From contig JACOEL010000021.1 of NCBI GenBank assembly GCA_024998625.1, forward strand, positions 114 to 64,113: a stretch of DNA of 64,000 nucleotides, in the 5' to 3' direction. The DNA comes from Nitrospira sp. (GTDB taxonomy: Bacteria > Nitrospirota > Nitrospiria > Nitrospirales > Nitrospiraceae). Numbering within the stretch: position 1 is the first letter of the stretch; every line of letters starts with the position of its first letter. Made by a program: the position numbers and the translations under genes. Shown here piece by piece: positions 39,602 through 51,297 of the stretch. Under the pieces are notes generated by a model. That model was not told the DNA's origin. It was given only the letters and a program-made list of their open reading frames with translations, and searched no databases.

Positions 39602-40897
39602 TCAACCGGAGCTCTGCAACCACCGCACGACTGCTTCACGCATCCGGACAGAAAGAATCCATTTGGCGATAGTCCGATGAAACGGCTTCAAACAAGTGGC
39701 CAGGATACGAAGTCGTCGTTGAAACCGGAACCAGGGCAACGAACGGGTGAGCACTTCTGCTTCCGCACGACAGAGCGCGACCCCAAGTTTCCACCGCTCA
39801 AGCCAGGAATCCTTGAGAGTCATGTACAGAGCCTCCGCACAATCTTCATCAATCCCATAACGAGGATTCTTCAGCAGCAGCTTAGGCATCTTTCGAACGA
39901 GGACGGGGATGTCGCCATCTGCCTCGATCTCCTGAAGTATCGTCCGTGGGACTGCGGTATCGAACAGGCTGTGAGCCATCGCCAGGCCGAGCAGGACCAA
40001 CCGTCGACATCTCCACTCGCCTGCCTGAAACAACACACGACTCCAATCTAACGCCGGCCGCCGACGCACGAGCTCCGCCACATCGCACACCCACTTCAAC
40101 TGCTCCCACGCATGTTTTGCCCCATGCACGCAGAGAAGGATCAACAGATCCTCAGGGCAGAGCCCCATCACCGACTTTGTTGGTAAGTGAACGGGTTTCA
40201 GTCTTCCCCAAAACGCGCTCCGATCAAGCCGAAATCCGAAATGTCGGCGAACCATCACCGACTGAAGATCGACCGCAACGATGCCGTTTCGTCTTTGGAA
40301 AAAGTGATACGGCTCCCCTGACTCCTCCCTGCCACCCATGTCCTGGCTGGTCAGTTGATACCCCTGAGACCATAAGACTTTCCGAGCTTGGGGAATCGCT
40401 CCCTGCTCAACAATCAAATCAATATCTGCACATTCCCGTAAACCTAGGTCGCCATACGCCGTCTGTGCAAGCGTGACGCCTTTAAAGGGAATCGCCATCA
40501 CTCCCTTCGCTGCCAACGCGTCGAGTAGCGACACGAGTTCTTTCGCCAGCAACGTATTGAGAAGCGCATTCGCCTGATTGTGACGGCGGAAGGCTTCGTG
40601 GATAGCCGAAGGCACCGCAGCAGGACAAATCGCAACCAGATTGCGGTACACCAGTGGCGCCACTCCATGGGCTCTGGACAGCCGCCAGACCAGTCCCCAA
40701 TCAATTCCATCACAGGCCAGATCCGCCACTTCGACTCGAACAAACTCATCCACCGTCGTTCGCGCACAGAGTACGAGTAAGCGCCCCTCCGCACGCATGA
40801 GGGACAAACCTGGCGCCGGTGTTGTCCCCTTACGCGAAATACCTCCCAGGCGAGAGGAGTTCCATTGTGCGATGGTGGACCCAGGACGCCGCCCCAT
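39602..40897 (-). CDS. Nucleotidyltransferase (NTP_transf_5-like, lasso-cluster type)
   Basis: IPFKG..LA..AYGD.GLR...DIDLIV, VDLQ, LCVHGAKH.W..LKW.CD. Confidence 0.88.
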   Translation of the reverse strand: MGRRPGSTIAQWNSSRLGGISRKGTTPAPGLSLMRAEGRLLVLCARTTVDEFVRVEVADLACDGIDWGLVWRLSRAHGVAPLVYRNLVAICPAAVPSAIHEAFRRHNQANALLNTLLAKELVSLLDALAAKGVMAIPFKGVTLAQTAYGDLGLRECADIDLIVEQGAIPQARKVLWSQGYQLTSQDMGGREESGEPYHFFQRRNGIVAVDLQSVMVRRHFGFRLDRSAFWGRLKPVHLPTKSVMGLCPEDLLILLCVHGAKHAWEQLKWVCDVAELVRRRPALDWSRVLFQAGEWRCRRLVLLGLAMAHSLFDTAVPRTILQEIEADGDIPVLVRKMPKLLLKNPRYGIDEDCAEALYMTLKDSWLERWKLGVALCRAEAEVLTRSLPWFRFQRRLRILATCLKPFHRTIAKWILSVRMREAVVRWLQSSG

Positions 40898-40898
40898 G

Positions 40899-41939
40899 TC
40901 AGTTCTCTCTCCTTCCTTGCCGCATCCCCAGAAGAGGTGTTACCAGCCATGGCAACTCCAAGACATCGCGTCCGAAGTGGAGTCGGTAACAGTCTGCCTG
41001 CTCGACCAATCGCACAAGCGCTTGAAACTCCAGGCGCGCCACCTCGGCGTCATACACCAGCAAGGAATGCGGAAGAATCATTTCCAATGCTACCTTCTTG
41101 GACAAGGGCTCCAGGCAACTATGCGAGGAATTGACCACCTCGGGAAAGAGGATCACGCTTGGCTCGCAAGGCTGACCTAATGGCCCCGGATACATATCCT
41201 CGACATTGAAATAGCGCTTGGGGACACCTGCATGCAGGACAGATGGCGGAGCCTCTCGCAATTCGGGAAAGAACGATACGGTGTGATCGGTCACGTTGAT
41301 CTTCAGCGGATACGGGAGGATCTCCACGCGTGTGCCGCTGATCCGAAAAAATGGGTGGTCATCGGAGAGGTAACGATACCCTGATCTCAGTAGTGATAGG
41401 AACGAGGTGGTTTTCCCTTGCCCACTGAAACCAGGAATCAGCACCCCCCGCCCCATGTGCTCCAGGGCGGTGGCATGAAACGTATACAATCCTCGCCGCT
41501 TCAGTAGTTCCGTCATGGCGAAATGGACAAAACTCACTCGGATATCCGGTGCCATAGTCTCCGGTTTCACCAAATACCCCTGGACAGATGGCGAAGCCCC
41601 ATCGATGACGACCAGGCCTTCTTCATGAAAGTCAGCAATCAACAGTCCCTGTTCTGAGTAGATGTCGCACAGCCATGTCGTCCGTCGATCAGGACCAATC
41701 ACGAGGCCAGAACCGCTGTACAACAGTTTCGCCGAACCAGAAACCCTAACAGGAACATCCCCTCGTCGCTCGACCGCGTCGAATTCCATCAGCATCGGTT
41801 GAGCCACAGTGGTGGCGAGTTGAAAGTGATGGAATAACGCCTCAACGGAATGTGCCAGCTCGGACGAATTGGTGGTGAATTTCATCTCTATGCCATGGAC
41901 AGAGAGTAGAAGTTCTTTCGTTATCGACGTCATGAACAT
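40899..41939 (-). CDS. HPr-kinase-like P-loop kinase (lasso-cluster type)
   Basis: FHATAL, GVLIPGFSGQGKTT (Walker A), YLSDD. Confidence 0.85.
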   Translation of the reverse strand: MFMTSITKELLLSVHGIEMKFTTNSSELAHSVEALFHHFQLATTVAQPMLMEFDAVERRGDVPVRVSGSAKLLYSGSGLVIGPDRRTTWLCDIYSEQGLLIADFHEEGLVVIDGASPSVQGYLVKPETMAPDIRVSFVHFAMTELLKRRGLYTFHATALEHMGRGVLIPGFSGQGKTTSFLSLLRSGYRYLSDDHPFFRISGTRVEILPYPLKINVTDHTVSFFPELREAPPSVLHAGVPKRYFNVEDMYPGPLGQPCEPSVILFPEVVNSSHSCLEPLSKKVALEMILPHSLLVYDAEVARLEFQALVRLVEQADCYRLHFGRDVLELPWLVTPLLGMRQGRREN

Positions 41940-41995
41940 TCACGCGTCTCCTTTTCAACCTTTCGTCCACCGCCATCGCCTTACCGCTCTAGAAC

Positions 41996-42026
41996 GAGCT
42001 GGCCGGTCTGATTCACCGGCCAGCTC
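41996..42026. terminator. Perfect 12-bp stem-loop downstream of the precursor gene
   Basis: GAGCTGGCCGGT-CTGATTC-ACCGGCCAGCTC; no U tract on the minus strand. Confidence 0.65.
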
Positions 42027-42053
42027 CGCTGCTCTCACGGGAGCATTCGACAA

Positions 42054-42167
42054 CTAGCTGATTCTTTGATCCACCACGCGGGACAGCTGAATAGCCGTCA
42101 CGTCGCGCAGCAACTCATGCTTCACGAGCGCCGGCTTGACGTACACGATTTTCTTCTGTTGCTCCAT
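42054..42167 (-). CDS. RiPP precursor, lasso-type leader: MEQQKKIVYVKPALVKHELLRDVTAIQLSRVVDQRIS
   Basis: Translated by hand; AAAGGAGGTGA RBS overlapping the RRE stop; YxxPxL(x9)T leader spacing; sits between RRE and kinase. Confidence 0.88.
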   Translation of the reverse strand: MEQQKKIVYVKPALVKHELLRDVTAIQLSRVVDQRIS

Positions 42168-42173
42168 TCTGAC

Positions 42174-42491
42174 TCACCTCCTTTCAATCTGAAGTAATCC
42201 CTCCTGCTCCAAATGCACGATCAAATCCAACACATCGTCCTGAGCCTGCTGTGCAGACACGTCAAATCTGGCACAGATTGCTGAGTGAATCTGCCGCAAC
42301 GACTGCTCCCCTCTGCACAAATCCCAAATGGTTGATCCGACGACATTGAGCGTGTAATAGCGGCCGGAGTTCAGATTCAACAGCACACTTTCACCATCGA
42401 GAACCGTGCTGTGGACCTGTTCATCCTGCCTGGGAAATACTTCGGATAATTCGAACTGACGCTCACTCCACAGATGCACAGTGGCAGGCAT
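42174..42491 (-). CDS. PqqD-family RiPP recognition element (lasso B1/E protein)
   Basis: CAGGAG RBS; VLLNLNSGRYYTLNVVGSTIWDLC.G..SL.QI...ICARFDV....A..DV..LI..L.QEGLL. Confidence 0.92.
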   Translation of the reverse strand: MPATVHLWSERQFELSEVFPRQDEQVHSTVLDGESVLLNLNSGRYYTLNVVGSTIWDLCRGEQSLRQIHSAICARFDVSAQQAQDDVLDLIVHLEQEGLLQIERR

Positions 42492-42863
42492 ATAGATGCT
42501 CCTGGTTCAGATTGTTGGGGATTTGTGACTGCTCCGATAGCACCATTCGTTCTAAAACTGATTCTTCCTCGAAGTCTTGGTCTCCCCACAAGCAAGACGT
42601 GTACATCACTGCAAGACAAGGGCGAAACTATCGTCATCACGTCCGTTTCTCTATCCCCAGTGAGATTGGGCTCCACCTCCCTTTGGGGGATCCGGATTTT
42701 GCTTTTATGGAAACGGATGAAAAAAGCGTGCAGATGAGGCCGCTGACGAGTTTCAAAGCCGAACTTGTCAGCTTGATTCACGCAGACGCACAGGAAAGAC
42801 TCAATTCTCTCAGGCCCGCCATGTCCAGCCGACCCCAAAAGACGGTAATGTGCAGAGGAGATC

Positions 42864-43304
42864 TCAGGAGATGCGAGATGATTGAGTACTTGAAGAAAGC
42901 AGGGATTGGGGGAAGGTAACCGTCACCGTAAACGATTGCCAGTGGGAGGACGGCTCAAGAAACTCATGACCATGCAGCACCAGCCATGCGTGTCCCTCCA
43001 GCTGCTGATTGAGCTTCATCACTCCACATTTGAATTGAACGGGGAGGCCGGCACGGCGGGCGAAAAAAAACAGCGCTAACGCTCGAGGAAAACAATTTCC
43101 CTTCGGATTGTATGGAAACAGCGCAAGCCACCGATCCACATAATAGGCCACATTTTCCATCGCGTGCTCATCAGGACCGGCTGAAATCTCACATGATAAC
43201 CAGCCGAGCAATCGTCTGAGACTCGTCAGGCGGGACACGATGCGAACTCCAACGACCACAACACCAGTGGCAACGATCAGTCGATATTTCCGAACCGACG
43301 ACAT
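42864..43304 (-). CDS. Lasso-peptide B2 leader protease (transglutaminase-like Cys protease)
   Basis: NCFPRALAL (Cys), V.FKCGV, GHAWL (His) followed by Glu. Confidence 0.9.
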   Translation of the reverse strand: MSSVRKYRLIVATGVVVVGVRIVSRLTSLRRLLGWLSCEISAGPDEHAMENVAYYVDRWLALFPYNPKGNCFPRALALFFFARRAGLPVQFKCGVMKLNQQLEGHAWLVLHGHEFLEPSSHWQSFTVTVTFPQSLLSSSTQSSRIS

Positions 43305-43371
43305 GCCAATCAGTCTAGCAAGGCGCAGGAGAAAGTCCAGACGATCCTATGAACCGGCGAGGAGAAGGAGG

Positions 43372-44802
43372 TCAGCGTGGAGCTTCAAAGAGCCCAAGTT
43401 GAAGTTCTTCTGCCCTGGTAAAGGAGATAGGATATTGTTCGGTAAAGCAAGCATCGCAGTAGTGCCCCGGAATGCCGGGAGCCGCCTTCACCATGCCGTC
43501 CAGGCTCAAATAGGCGAGGCTATCCGCGGTGATGTATTTACGAATCTCTTCGGTGGTGTGACTGGACGCGATCAATTCCTTCTTGGTCGGGGTATCGATA
43601 CCATAAAAACAGGGCGACACGATCGGCGGAGAACTAATCCGCATATGTACTTCTTTGGCTCCGGCATGACGCAGCATCTTGACGATTTTTCGGCTAGTCG
43701 TTCCTCGAACCAACGAATCGTCTACTACGACGACGCGTTTCCCTTCGAGGACTTCGGGAACGGCATTGAGTTTTACCTTCACACCAAAGTGGCGAATTGA
43801 CTGTTCAGGCTCGATGAAGGTGCGACCCACATAATGATTTCGAATCAGCCCCGTCTCGAACGGAAACCCAGATCCTTCGGAATACCCCAACGCCGCCGGC
43901 ACCCCGGAATCCGGCACGGGAATCACGATGTCCGCATCAACCCGCGATTCTTTCGCCAATTGTCGCCCGAATGCTTTCCGGATGGAATAGACGGCTTTGC
44001 CTCCAAAAATGCGGCTGTCAGGACGGGCAAAGTAGACATATTCAAACACACACATGGCCGGCTTGGTTTGAGCAAATGGCTTATAACTGGTGACGCCCTG
44101 ATGATCCAGTACCACCAACTCTCCCGGTTCGATCTCCCTTACATATTCGGCATCCAACAGATCGAACGCGCAACTTTCGGAGGCCACTATCCAGGCGTCA
44201 CGAAACCGTCCCAGGCACAGGGGGCGGAATCCATAGGGATCGCGCGCGGCGACAATGCCCTGATCGGTCATCAGAACTACTGAAAATGCACCGCGAACCT
44301 GGGTGAGCGAATCGATGACCCGGTCCAGCAGCGTATCCGCCCGCGAATGCGCGATGAGATGGATTATGACTTCCGTATCGGACGTCGATTGAAAAATAGC
44401 GCCATAGGCTTCCAGTTCACTGCGAAGCATGGTGGCATTGATCAAATTCCCATTGTGCGCCACGGCCAAGTTACCGAAGGCAAAATTGACGCTCAAGGGT
44501 TGCACATTCTTGAGGCCCGCCCCGCCCGCGGTGGAATAGCGGTTGTGCCCAATCGCCATCGTACCGGGCAAACGCGCCAAGGCCTGTTGCGAAAAGATAT
44601 CGGCGACAAGGCCCTGGCCCTTTTCGACATAAAACTGTTCGCCGTCGTTGGAGACAATGCCGGAAGCTTCCTGTCCGCGATGTTGCAAGGCATAGAGGCC
44701 GAGGTAGGCGAGGTTCGAGGCCTCTTTATGGCCGTAGATTCCGAACACGGCGCATTCGTCGTGGAACTTATCGGGAGAAATCAGCGGTAATTCGTTGGCC
44801 AT
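43372..44802 (-). CDS. purF: Amidophosphoribosyltransferase
   Basis: [45 protein letters not shown]. Confidence 0.98.
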
Positions 44803-49174: not shown

Positions 49175-49969
49175 CTACTGTGCAAACTTTTCCAAAATCT
49201 CATCCAGCGGACTCATCGTACCCAACAAGGTCGGATGCCCGAAACGTCGATTGTGGCGGAACTCCTTCACCTGCTGCAGCGCCCGCACGAGACTGTGGAA
49301 ATCCTCTAACGTTTCGGTCTCAAAATAGGTGATGAAATCGACATCGTCGAGGCCGGTGGAATGATACAGTTTCCGTTTCACCGTCTTTAGATAGGGAAGC
49401 GCCGCCTGCGTGTGCTCCTGCATTAGAGCGGTCCGTGCTTCCTGGTCCAGCCCCCACCATTCCGCATCCTTCTTGATCGGAATTACAATCGCGTACGGCC
49501 TCGACCCGGCTTCGGCTTTCACCTGTAACTCCGTCTTTATGGATTCCGAGAAACCGGCAACGTAGGTGGGCTTCTTGCTTAGACCATGGAGCACTCCTCC
49601 CGGGGTGAGATGGCGCCCCAATCGAGTGCCCATGAAGGTCGAGAGAAACTGTTGGGTGTCCGAGAGCGTGCGGGCATGTATCCGAAACATGAGATCGGCA
49701 TGGTCGGATAATCCACGAAGCAGATAGGACTCGATCAGAATCTTGCCGGACCATTGTTCGACTAGTCCCTTGACCTCCGCCACCGAAATAACGCGCGACT
49801 CGCCGGGGAGGTCCCACCAATCATGATCCATCTGGAAGGTTGCAAACGTCCCGTATACCCCGGGTTCTGTCAGCAGCTTTTCCCCTTCGGCTGCCGAAGC
49901 TGACCAAACCGCAATCAACAACAACACACCGGCCAACAGCCCGGTCCGTCCTGCTGCTCGTATGTTCAT
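49175..49969 (-). CDS. cld: Chlorite dismutase, periplasmic long type
   Basis: Signal peptide; IPIKKDAEWW, MQEH (proximal His), VKRKLYHSTG (distal Arg), DFITYFET; start overlaps purB stop (ATGA). Confidence 0.95.
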   Translation of the reverse strand: MNIRAAGRTGLLAGVLLLIAVWSASAAEGEKLLTEPGVYGTFATFQMDHDWWDLPGESRVISVAEVKGLVEQWSGKILIESYLLRGLSDHADLMFRIHARTLSDTQQFLSTFMGTRLGRHLTPGGVLHGLSKKPTYVAGFSESIKTELQVKAEAGSRPYAIVIPIKKDAEWWGLDQEARTALMQEHTQAALPYLKTVKRKLYHSTGLDDVDFITYFETETLEDFHSLVRALQQVKEFRHNRRFGHPTLLGTMSPLDEILEKFAQ

Positions 49970-51297
49970 GCCCGTTTCCTCCGTTTCGCCGACGAGGCGG
50001 CACTCGACCCGAACACCCGGCGGAAGACCTGGTCCAAATGTCGCAGGTAATAGGCCGGGTCGAAGCAGGCAGTAATTTCGTGCTGTTTCAAGTGGGTGGT
50101 GATGAACGGATCGCGAGCGACCAGTTCCTGAAACCCGCCCCCGCCTTTCCACGCAGTCATTGCATTGCGCTGAACCGCCTCGTATGACTCTTTGCGCTGG
50201 GCGCCCTTGTCGATCAAGGCCAGCAGCAGTCGCTGCGAATAGACCAGGCCGCCGGTCAAATCGAGGTTTCGCTGCATCCGCTCGGGATACACAATCAGAT
50301 TCTTTACCAGGTCGGTCACGCGGGCCAACATATAATCGACCAGAATGGTGCTGTCCGGCATGATCACTCGTTCCACCGAAGAATGGCTGATGTCGCGCTC
50401 ATGCCACAGGGCCACGTTCTCTAATGCGGCCAGGCTATTACCGCGTACCAGGCGCGCCAGGCCGCACAGGTTTTCCGACGCAATCGGGTTGCGCTTGTGC
50501 GGCATCGCCGATGAGCCCTTCTGTCCGGGGGAGAAATATTCTTCCGCCTCCAGCACCTCCGTGCGCTGCAGGTGACGAATTTCGGTGGCGATTTTTTCAA
50601 TGGTCGCCGCCAATAACGCAAGCGCCGACGCATAGGCAGCATGCCGGTCACGCTGCACGATCTGGTTGGACACCGGATCCGACGCGAGGCCCAGCTTGGC
50701 GCAGACATATTCTTCGATTTCAGGGCCTTGATGTGCAAATGTGCCCATCGCACCCGAGAGCTTGCCCACCGCAATATCCTTCCGTGCGGCTTCAAGGCGC
50801 GTCCGGTGCCGGCAGGCCTCCTCATACCAGATCGCCAACTTGAACCCGAACGACACCGGCTCGCCATGAATGCCGTGCGACCGGCCCACCATCACGGTAT
50901 GGCGATGCTCGAGCGCACGTTTCTTCAGCACTGTGATCAACTCATTAAGGTCCTCGAGAATCAGATCGAGCGCTTCGGTCATTTGCACCGCCAGCGAGGT
51001 ATCGACGATGTCCGATGAGGTGAGTCCCATATGGAGGAACCGGTGCTCAGGTCCGACGGAATCCATCAGTGATTCGAGGAAGGCGATCACATCGTGTTTC
51101 GTGACCTTTTCGATTTCGGCAATGCGCGCCACATCGATCTTGGCTTTCTTGCGAATCCGGGCGCTGGTCCCGCGAGGGATCTGTCCGCCGCGCTCGAACG
51201 CAGCGCAGGCCTGCAACTCCACTTCCAGCCAAATTTCATATTTATGTTGAAGGTCCCAGATGGCACTCATCTGCGGACGGGTATATCGATCGATCAT
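49966..51297 (-). CDS. purB: Adenylosuccinate lyase
   Basis: MIDRY, HDVIAF, GRSHG.H, GSSAMPHKRNP, WHERDISHSS.ER. Confidence 0.98.
   Translation of the reverse strand: MIDRYTRPQMSAIWDLQHKYEIWLEVELQACAAFERGGQIPRGTSARIRKKAKIDVARIAEIEKVTKHDVIAFLESLMDSVGPEHRFLHMGLTSSDIVDTSLAVQMTEALDLILEDLNELITVLKKRALEHRHTVMVGRSHGIHGEPVSFGFKLAIWYEEACRHRTRLEAARKDIAVGKLSGAMGTFAHQGPEIEEYVCAKLGLASDPVSNQIVQRDRHAAYASALALLAATIEKIATEIRHLQRTEVLEAEEYFSPGQKGSSAMPHKRNPIASENLCGLARLVRGNSLAALENVALWHERDISHSSVERVIMPDSTILVDYMLARVTDLVKNLIVYPERMQRNLDLTGGLVYSQRLLLALIDKGAQRKESYEAVQRNAMTAWKGGGGFQELVARDPFITTHLKQHEITACFDPAYYLRHLDQVFRRVFGSSAASSAKRRKRA

Follow-up and report, generated by a model that had tools for sequence, protein, structure and literature searches.

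A cyclase-less, probably lasso-derived gene module of Nitrospira lineage I and its predicted linear phosphopeptide

Downstream of purF, lineage I Nitrospira carry a module of five genes that encode a leader peptidase (B2), a discrete PqqD-type recognition element (RRE) for peptides made by the ribosome and modified after translation (RiPPs) (B1), a precursor peptide of 37 residues (A), an HprK-like kinase (K) and a nucleotidyltransferase-fold enzyme of family PF14907 (N). The copy described here lies in a stretch of 64,000 nucleotides, referred to below as the window (contig JACOEL010000021.1 of assembly GCA_024998625.1, positions 114 to 64,113 of the forward strand), whose source is a lineage I Nitrospira near Ca. 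N. defluvii. Comparison with related loci, together with analogy to characterised systems, makes it probable, if far from certain, that K and N tailor the peptide of a lasso-derived RiPP module that has no cyclase, and that the product is a linear phosphopeptide of 12 residues decorated at the fourth residue of its core (Ser4).

In the pathway that we propose, B1 would bind the YVKPAL motif in the leader of the 37-residue precursor, and K would use ATP to phosphorylate Ser29 (core Ser4, in the motif IQLSR), perhaps repeatedly. N would attach a further group to the Ser29 phosphate through a phosphodiester or a pyrophosphate bond, and B2, assisted by B1, would cleave after Ala25. The order of these steps is putative, as are the acceptor serine, the group that is added and the site of cleavage. 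With neither a macrolactam synthetase nor a dedicated exporter, the end product would be the linear, decorated phosphopeptide of 12 residues. A first-pass annotation of the window had recognised K and N as a coupled pair within a RiPP operon, and the adjacent RRE and precursor genes bear this out; it had also predicted a C-terminal modification and treated the cluster as a lasso system, and neither of these two views finds support, for the reasons given below.

Gene arrangement and the kinase-nucleotidyltransferase pair

Read along the minus strand, the order of the genes is purL, purF, B2, a gap of 372 bp, B1, A, K and N; beyond N follow genes for a thioredoxin-like protein, a metallo-beta-lactamase-fold protein and a TPR protein. 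B1, B2, A, K and N each occur once in the genome, which has a completeness score of 100%, and a whole-genome search with PF05402 found B1 as the sole PqqD. The B2 gene starts 67 bp beyond the purF stop, whereas A, which has a strong ribosome-binding site (GAAAGGAGG), begins with an ATG only 6 nt past the B1 stop. K and N are separated by a single nucleotide, as the first-pass annotation had noted: the TGA of K is followed by one base and then by the ATG of N, the ribosome-binding site of which (GGAAGGAGAG) lies inside the 3' end of K. Of the 32 related loci with enough upstream sequence, 29 have a K gene that touches or overlaps N, and the remaining three are eroded; the pairing of K and N is far above what chance would give.

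K gives sub-cut-off matches to Hpr_kinase_C and to TIGR04352 and TIGR04355 (NCBIfam); since its scores fall below the cut-offs of the last two, K is a relative and not an equivalog. The HPrK-like histidine, Walker A and DD motifs seen at first pass are confirmed by an alignment of 17 Nitrospira orthologues, in which H155, the P-loop G170-x-S-G-x-G-K-T-T178 and S192-D193-D194 are all invariant. In its AlphaFold model (pLDDT 87) K adopts the PEPCK/HprK fold, and when the alignment profile was compared with solved structures HprK/P was the sole match (E 4e-4). K thus has in common with HprK/P the PEPCK-like P-loop kinase fold, the histidine, Walker A and the DD motif, but the match in sequence is weak, the N-terminal domain is another one, and the predicted substrate is a RiPP precursor instead of HPr. 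When the complex of the kinase with its presumed peptide substrate, ATP and Mg was predicted, the score was 0.03 against a mark of 0.32, which gives no verdict either way.

N matches PF14907 (NTP_transf_5) with 224.9 bits, the cut-off being 31.2. Its KG...D.D metal site, also recognised at first pass, stands: G140 and D158 never vary among 18 orthologues, 17 of which retain K139 and D160. N is modelled (pLDDT 80) with a Pol-beta-type nucleotidyltransferase fold in which the acidic residues are intact, and the structures nearest to the model are the MenT toxins, ANT(2'')-Ia, LnuA and FKRP, a CDP-ribitol phosphotransferase. From these neighbours of the fold, the group added by N could be a nucleoside monophosphate, or a phospho-alcohol taken from a CDP-alcohol; by the precedent of PsmN of the pseudomycoidin cluster, it could be a hexose. 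Every one of the 120 matches listed by a homologue search with N came from Nitrospira. One representative of PF14907 (P0175) is an N-type protein fused to a PqqD RRE. Other architectures in the family are a protein of 941 residues with two PF14907 stretches and a methyltransferase domain (P0127), and an N protein with an N-terminal extension of 175 residues that has no assignment (P0210).

The precursor and its acceptor serine

The leader of A carries the lasso-type YxxPxL motif (YVKPAL in the window), with Tyr at position -17 and Thr at -2 relative to the predicted cut. When 20 precursors were aligned, Y9, P12, V15-K16-H17, L20-R21-D22 and T24-A25 proved invariant. The core begins with the motif xQLSR[VI], which reads IQLSR in the window. 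Each of the 16 lineage I precursors has the serine of this motif, at core position 4, and it is the sole hydroxyl residue of the core that never varies. Only three of the 16 end in a serine; the last residue of the other 13 is V, A, R, Y, Q, F or T. In the K-N modules of lineage II the cores start with GQSGY, GTSGQ, KRSGH and the like, which puts the serine at position 3, and a C-terminal Ser does not occur. Position 3 is also the one used by two characterised kinases, BsfK, which phosphorylates Ser3 of its precursor BsfA (PMC10368454), and LppK, which polyphosphorylates Ser3 in LppA, a linear peptide (PMC13381572). Because the serine is kept in 16 of 16 lineage I precursors, because lineage II has Ser3, and because both BsfK and LppK use Ser3, core Ser4 (Ser29) is the likelier acceptor; on comparison of the cores and by analogy, the phosphate would be placed on the conserved serine near the core N-terminus rather than on the serine of the tail.

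The C-terminal site claimed at first pass is the strongest competitor, though an unlikely one. It would have K phosphorylate Ser37, as PadeK, ThcoK and PsmK do with the last residue of their peptides, and N decorate that phosphate. The precursor in the window does end in Ser, and in paeninodin and pseudomycoidin the kinase acts on the C-terminal Ser, such kinases being little selective elsewhere in the peptide (PMC8498205, PMC6993621). Against this stand the 13 lineage I precursors with another last residue, although their K proteins show 73-87% identity, and the lineage II cores, all of which lack a C-terminal Ser.

The substrate of K and N and the state of the module

Several features of the loci suggest that the peptide is the substrate of K and N, as decoration of core Ser4 would require: the order B1-A-K-N, the translational coupling, the adjacency of K and N in 29 of 32 loci, the P0175 fusion, and the erosion of the N motifs in one locus (L028) from which A, K and B2 have gone. 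The N gene of this locus accounts for 14 of the 36 single-sequence deviations at near-invariant columns, among them K139H, D160E, K261L and E265K, a pattern that is suggestive of relaxed constraint after the loss of A, K and B2 but, as its pairwise dN/dS is still low, not decisive. It would be possible, if distinctly improbable, that K, N or both mainly modify some other substrate, such as a protein, an envelope polymer or a small molecule, and that the peptide genes are mere neighbours. PF14907 is huge (36,755 representatives at E <= 1e-3) and most of its members presumably lie outside RiPP clusters; moreover, the frame of N remains open where K has been lost. Nevertheless, the tight and translationally coupled B1-A-K-N arrangement, the adjacency of K and N, the existence of a fusion of N with PqqD and the eroded motifs of the orphan N in L028 all speak for the peptide.

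The module was compared with its counterparts in lineage I by means of the ratio of nonsynonymous to synonymous substitution rates (dN/dS), calculated for the window paired with each of seven lineage I loci; the values hold to saturated dS. The ratio was 0.08-0.33 for B2, 0.11-0.25 for B1, 0.08-0.22 for K and 0.04-0.17 for N, so that, judged in this way, all four enzyme genes are under purifying selection (0.04-0.33). The five genes are intact in 11 fully covered lineage I loci (the window, L012-L016, L019, L020, L023, L026 and a survey locus), and an orthologue of N was found in nine of nine sampled genomes of the genus. The dN/dS values, the preserved ribosome-binding sites, the coupling of K and N across 1 nt and a hairpin behind A (described below) mark the module, as far as its sequence can tell, as functional rather than decaying. 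Even less probable than another substrate is therefore the view that the module is a remnant of a larger cluster, which has lost an exporter, ATP-grasp genes or a cyclase and makes no product now. The cyclase, the exporter and the ATP-grasp genes are indeed all absent, and four lineage I loci are visibly eroded; but a remnant would sit poorly with the 11 intact loci, with the low dN/dS values, with the retention of the leader and the QLSR motif as well as of the ribosome-binding sites and the hairpin, and with the presence of N in every sampled genome.

Several observations weigh against a functional module in which K and N together decorate core Ser4. The eroded loci (L018, L025, L028 and L052) indicate that the module is dispensable. 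In three loci without K, L028 among them, N is still open and has a pairwise dN/dS of 0.07-0.21, which leaves room for a role that is independent of K. The conserved serine of lineage I is at core position 4 and not 3, and since the precursor in the window ends in Ser, a site of the paeninodin type may be used in this particular strain. No dedicated exporter is encoded at the lineage I locus. With regard to the known relatives of N, LppN had no detectable effect in a heterologous host (PMC13381572), and PsmN may act indirectly (PMC6993621). The eroded stretches in which K, B2 and seemingly the precursor have been lost while N stays open are L028:6972-9270, L018:8600-10000 and L025:9070-9870.

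Absence of a lasso cyclase

A lasso cluster requires an asparagine-synthetase-like macrolactam synthetase. The purF-linked locus was found to have no gene of this kind in any of the 43 Nitrospira loci retrieved by way of N, or in three loci of sister genera from the phylum survey (L069-L071). The window genome, scored as complete, has no lasso cyclase either, at the locus or elsewhere: its five PF00733 genes are all on other contigs, all begin with MCGI, as true amidotransferases do, and all score above the TIGR01536 (asparagine synthase) cut-off and well below the lasso-cyclase cut-offs. The cyclase has thus been lost from the Nitrospira module, or was never present in it, and in its absence the product should be linear. 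The treatment of the cluster as a lasso system at first pass fails on this point. The locus does have several of the hallmarks of such a system, namely the YxxPxL leader with Thr at -2, the B1 RRE and the Cys-protease B2; it lacks the cyclase, a conserved Asp or Glu at core positions 7-9, and a tail of threading length. The tail would have only four residues, too few for threading a ring. Asp8 of the window core is not conserved, and about half of the lineage I cores have no acidic residue at positions 7-9, in agreement with the absence of ring formation.

Elsewhere in Nitrospirota there are canonical lasso clusters with the order B1-B2-C-K-N, in which the cyclase lies inside the cluster (L063, L065 and L068). 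Their existence indicates that the purF-linked locus does not lack a cyclase for want of cyclases in the phylum. The N proteins of these three clusters are 24-30% identical to N of the window. That the module makes a true lasso peptide with the help of a cyclase encoded elsewhere in the genome is very hard to credit: the window core has in Asp8 a possible ring acceptor and the genome has five Asn-synthase homologues, but all five are glutamine amidotransferases of the MCGI type that score as asparagine synthase, Asp8 is not kept among orthologues, the tail is too short, and the lasso cyclases of Nitrospirota sit inside their own clusters. As to the canonical clusters themselves, they were located at L063:4400-10500, L065:6600-14200, L068:4500-10700 and L061:9500-14400; one of the canonical clusters is a second locus of a lineage II Nitrospira genome, and their precursors have the form KKPYxxPxLxEYG...LT.

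Forms of the locus in Nitrospira and sister genera

The lineage I form of the locus is purF-B2-B1-A-K-N, with one or two copies of A. Some lineage II genomes have B1-A-K-N-B2 and an MsbA-like ABC exporter; others add to this two ATP-grasp maturases and a third RRE, as well as a second kinase, genes of the fatty-acid-hydroxylase-like type and a second N. In survey genera g4 and g6 the ATP-grasp version alone was found. In lineage II the purF flank and the module are separated by 1-3 kb with other open reading frames (ORFs). Wherever the flank was available, purL-purF lies upstream of the module, and since this is so in every form, the adjacency must be old and inherited. The connection between the nucleotide donor and the neighbouring purine operon that was suggested at first pass would have this inherited synteny as its basis and is speculative. 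The window genome has no orthologue of the lineage II exporter, its best matches being generic ABC proteins on other contigs that are about 30% identical.

The hybrid cluster of lineage II, which is much larger, stands at the purF-linked site in L033:7300-21242 and also in L031, L037, L038, L044, L047 and L051. Clusters of this type comprise several B1-precursor pairs, K1, N1, B2, an ABC exporter and two TIGR04187-like ATP-grasp maturases, and continue with a third RRE and K2, a pair of fatty-acid-hydroxylase-like genes and a second N; a lasso cyclase is lacking. No description of this combination of genes was found in the searchable literature. The loci of the sister genera (L069:1500-10600, L070:9400-17700 and L071:3900-10600) encode B2, which the exporter may or may not accompany, two ATP-grasp enzymes, B1, precursors, K, a hydroxylase and N; the precursor cores are similar to IKYREKTSDK, look like those of graspetides and have no Ser3.

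Relation to known systems

The linear polyphosphorylated peptides (LPPs), encoded by lppAKBSDN in Paenibacillus alginolyticus, were described by Popov et al. (Nat Commun 2026; PMC13381572), who stated that they are restricted to Bacillota. The leader consensus of the LPPs is YxxPxVLxHQxIxFETxxS, the characterised LppA core has 45 residues, and the precursors range from 35 to 200 residues (PMC13381572). The Nitrospira leader, Y-V-K-P-A-L-V-K-H-E-L-L-R-D-V-T, is close to this consensus; both follow the pattern Y-x-x-P-x-[VL]-[LV]-x-H-[QE]-x-[IL] and end with Thr. In both cases an RRE, an HprK-like kinase and an NTP transferase occur without a cyclase, the serine that accepts, or is predicted to accept, the phosphate is the third or fourth residue of the core, and the C-terminal end varies. 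There are, on the other hand, clear differences. [quoted passage not shown] An MsbA-like exporter belongs to the LPP core cluster; it is missing in lineage I and present in the lineage II relatives. The core in lineage I has 10-14 residues in contrast to the 45 of LppA, and the host is from Nitrospirota instead of Bacillota. Among solved RREs, and judged by bit score, B1 is nearer to lasso B1 proteins (41 bits with PbaB1, 9x90; 40 bits with TbiB1) than to LppB (18.8 bits; 9x8z). The presence of B2, the missing exporter, the short core and the lasso-like B1 suggest that the module, though LPP-like in its predicted working, lies outside the LPP clade; it has probably arisen independently, from lasso-type machinery without the cyclase.

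The pseudomycoidin cluster of Bacillus pseudomycoides (psmCAKB1B2ND) was correctly cited as a precedent in the first-pass annotation: PsmK phosphorylates the peptide, and PsmN is needed for the addition of one or two hexoses to the phosphate (PMC6993621). As in Nitrospira, the tailoring pair K and N occurs there with B1 and B2. The PsmN D134A/D136A double mutant is inactive (PMC6993621), and the residues at which mutation abolishes the activity of PsmK and PsmN correspond to the DD of K and the D-x-D of N in the window. The psm cluster differs in having a cyclase (PsmC) and an exporter (PsmD), and the phosphate and hexoses are carried by the C-terminal Ser of a cyclised peptide. The bsf cluster of Bradymonas sediminis is alike in that BsfK targets core Ser3 and in that an N gene (bsfN) is present; it differs by encoding a cyclase and an ABC transporter and by an Ile at leader position -2 (PMC10368454). 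In this system, B1 assists both phosphorylation and cleavage by B2 (PMC10368454). A likeness to graspetides is confined to the lineage II loci, with their two TIGR04187-like ATP-grasp peptide maturases; neither the window nor its genome has a homologue of these enzymes.

Tailoring pairs of K and N were already known, as have been, since 2026, cyclase-less linear phosphopeptides; these are so far from Bacillota only and depend on a different leader peptidase. The Nitrospirota locus would reach the same outcome from lasso-type machinery, which would mean that the cyclase was lost or replaced on more than one occasion. A module of five genes is also a compact system for learning what PF14907 enzymes add to a peptidyl phosphate, a question that the studies of pseudomycoidin, Bsf and the LPPs left unanswered. 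As all genomes sampled from this genus of key wastewater and soil nitrite oxidisers were found to have the module, the product may bear on their physiology or their interactions. As a broader and only tentative proposal, in which we place much less confidence than in the linear phosphopeptide, the purF-linked locus might represent a RiPP family of its own, in which lasso-type B1 and B2 are combined with phospho-decoration by K and N and never with a lasso cyclase. In lineage II and the sister genera, a pair of ATP-grasp enzymes, fatty-acid-hydroxylase-like oxygenases and a second K and N would take the place of the cyclase; in lineage I, five genes without an exporter would yield a linear phospho-adduct of 12 residues, whose site of action would be the interior or the envelope of the cell in a major nitrite oxidiser.

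Features of the window and non-coding elements

The coordinates of the module and of its flanking and non-coding features are collected in Table 1. B2 scores 53.5 bits with NF033537 (lasso_biosyn_B2; cut-off 33), and its residues C71, H105 and E117 are invariant in 12 orthologues.

Table 1. Features at the purF-linked module, in window coordinates
Feature	Position	Strand	Basis
purF	43372..44802	-	TIGR01134, 555 bits; conserved upstream flank, outside the module
B2, leader peptidase, transglutaminase-like Cys protease, 146 aa	42864..43304	-	PF13471, 68.5 bits; NF033537
B2-B1 non-coding gap, 372 bp	42492..42863	-	frames broken in relatives; holds the conserved block
Conserved block, about 70 nt, includes TCTCACTGGGAATAGAGAAAC	roughly 42622-42689	-	seen in 7 lineage I loci
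B1, discrete PqqD-type RRE, 105 aa	42174..42491	-	PF05402, 70.6 bits; lasso_PqqD_Bac, 63.4 bits
A, precursor peptide, 37 aa, MEQQKKIVYVKPALVKHELLRDVTA then IQLSRVVDQRIS	42054..42167	-	small ORF with ribosome-binding site and conserved leader
A leader	42093-42167	-	upstream of the predicted cleavage site
A predicted core, 12 residues, IQLSRVVDQRIS	42057-42092	-	follows the predicted cut after Ala25
Ser29 codon (core Ser4)	42081-42083	-	within the A core
Ser37 codon	42057-42059	-	C-terminal residue of A
GC-rich stem-loop directly past the A stop codon	41996..42026	-	fold z-score -3.0
K, HprK-like P-loop peptide kinase, 346 aa	40899..41939	-	ORF list, motifs, model fold, profile match
N, PF14907 nucleotidyltransferase-fold enzyme, 431 aa	39602..40897	-	PF14907 match, motifs, model fold

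The stem-loop behind A was found in all ten lineage I loci checked (the window and nine relatives), and both of its arms are changed in L023 and L024; it is likely to be an attenuator or an element that stabilises the mRNA between A and K-N. The conserved block in the gap between B2 and B1 is non-coding, because the frames across it carry stops in relatives (L016 and L019), and its conservation makes it a candidate promoter or operator for B1-A-K-N. A tblastn search of the 372-bp gap with Asn synthases, the ABC exporter and the ATP-grasp genes gave no remnant of any of them, and an Rfam search over 41900-43400 gave no match. The spacer of 67 bp between purF and B2 has no terminator-like site, in a scan for promoters and terminators that overall gave fewer sites than shuffled sequence. 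An ORF of 153 aa at 42377-42838 is not taken for a gene, as no family matches it, B1 overlaps it, and its frame is broken in relatives.

Farther upstream, within the purine operon and between purB and purC, the window carries a gene of the chlorite-dismutase family (PF06778, 149 bits; positions 49175-50152, minus strand).

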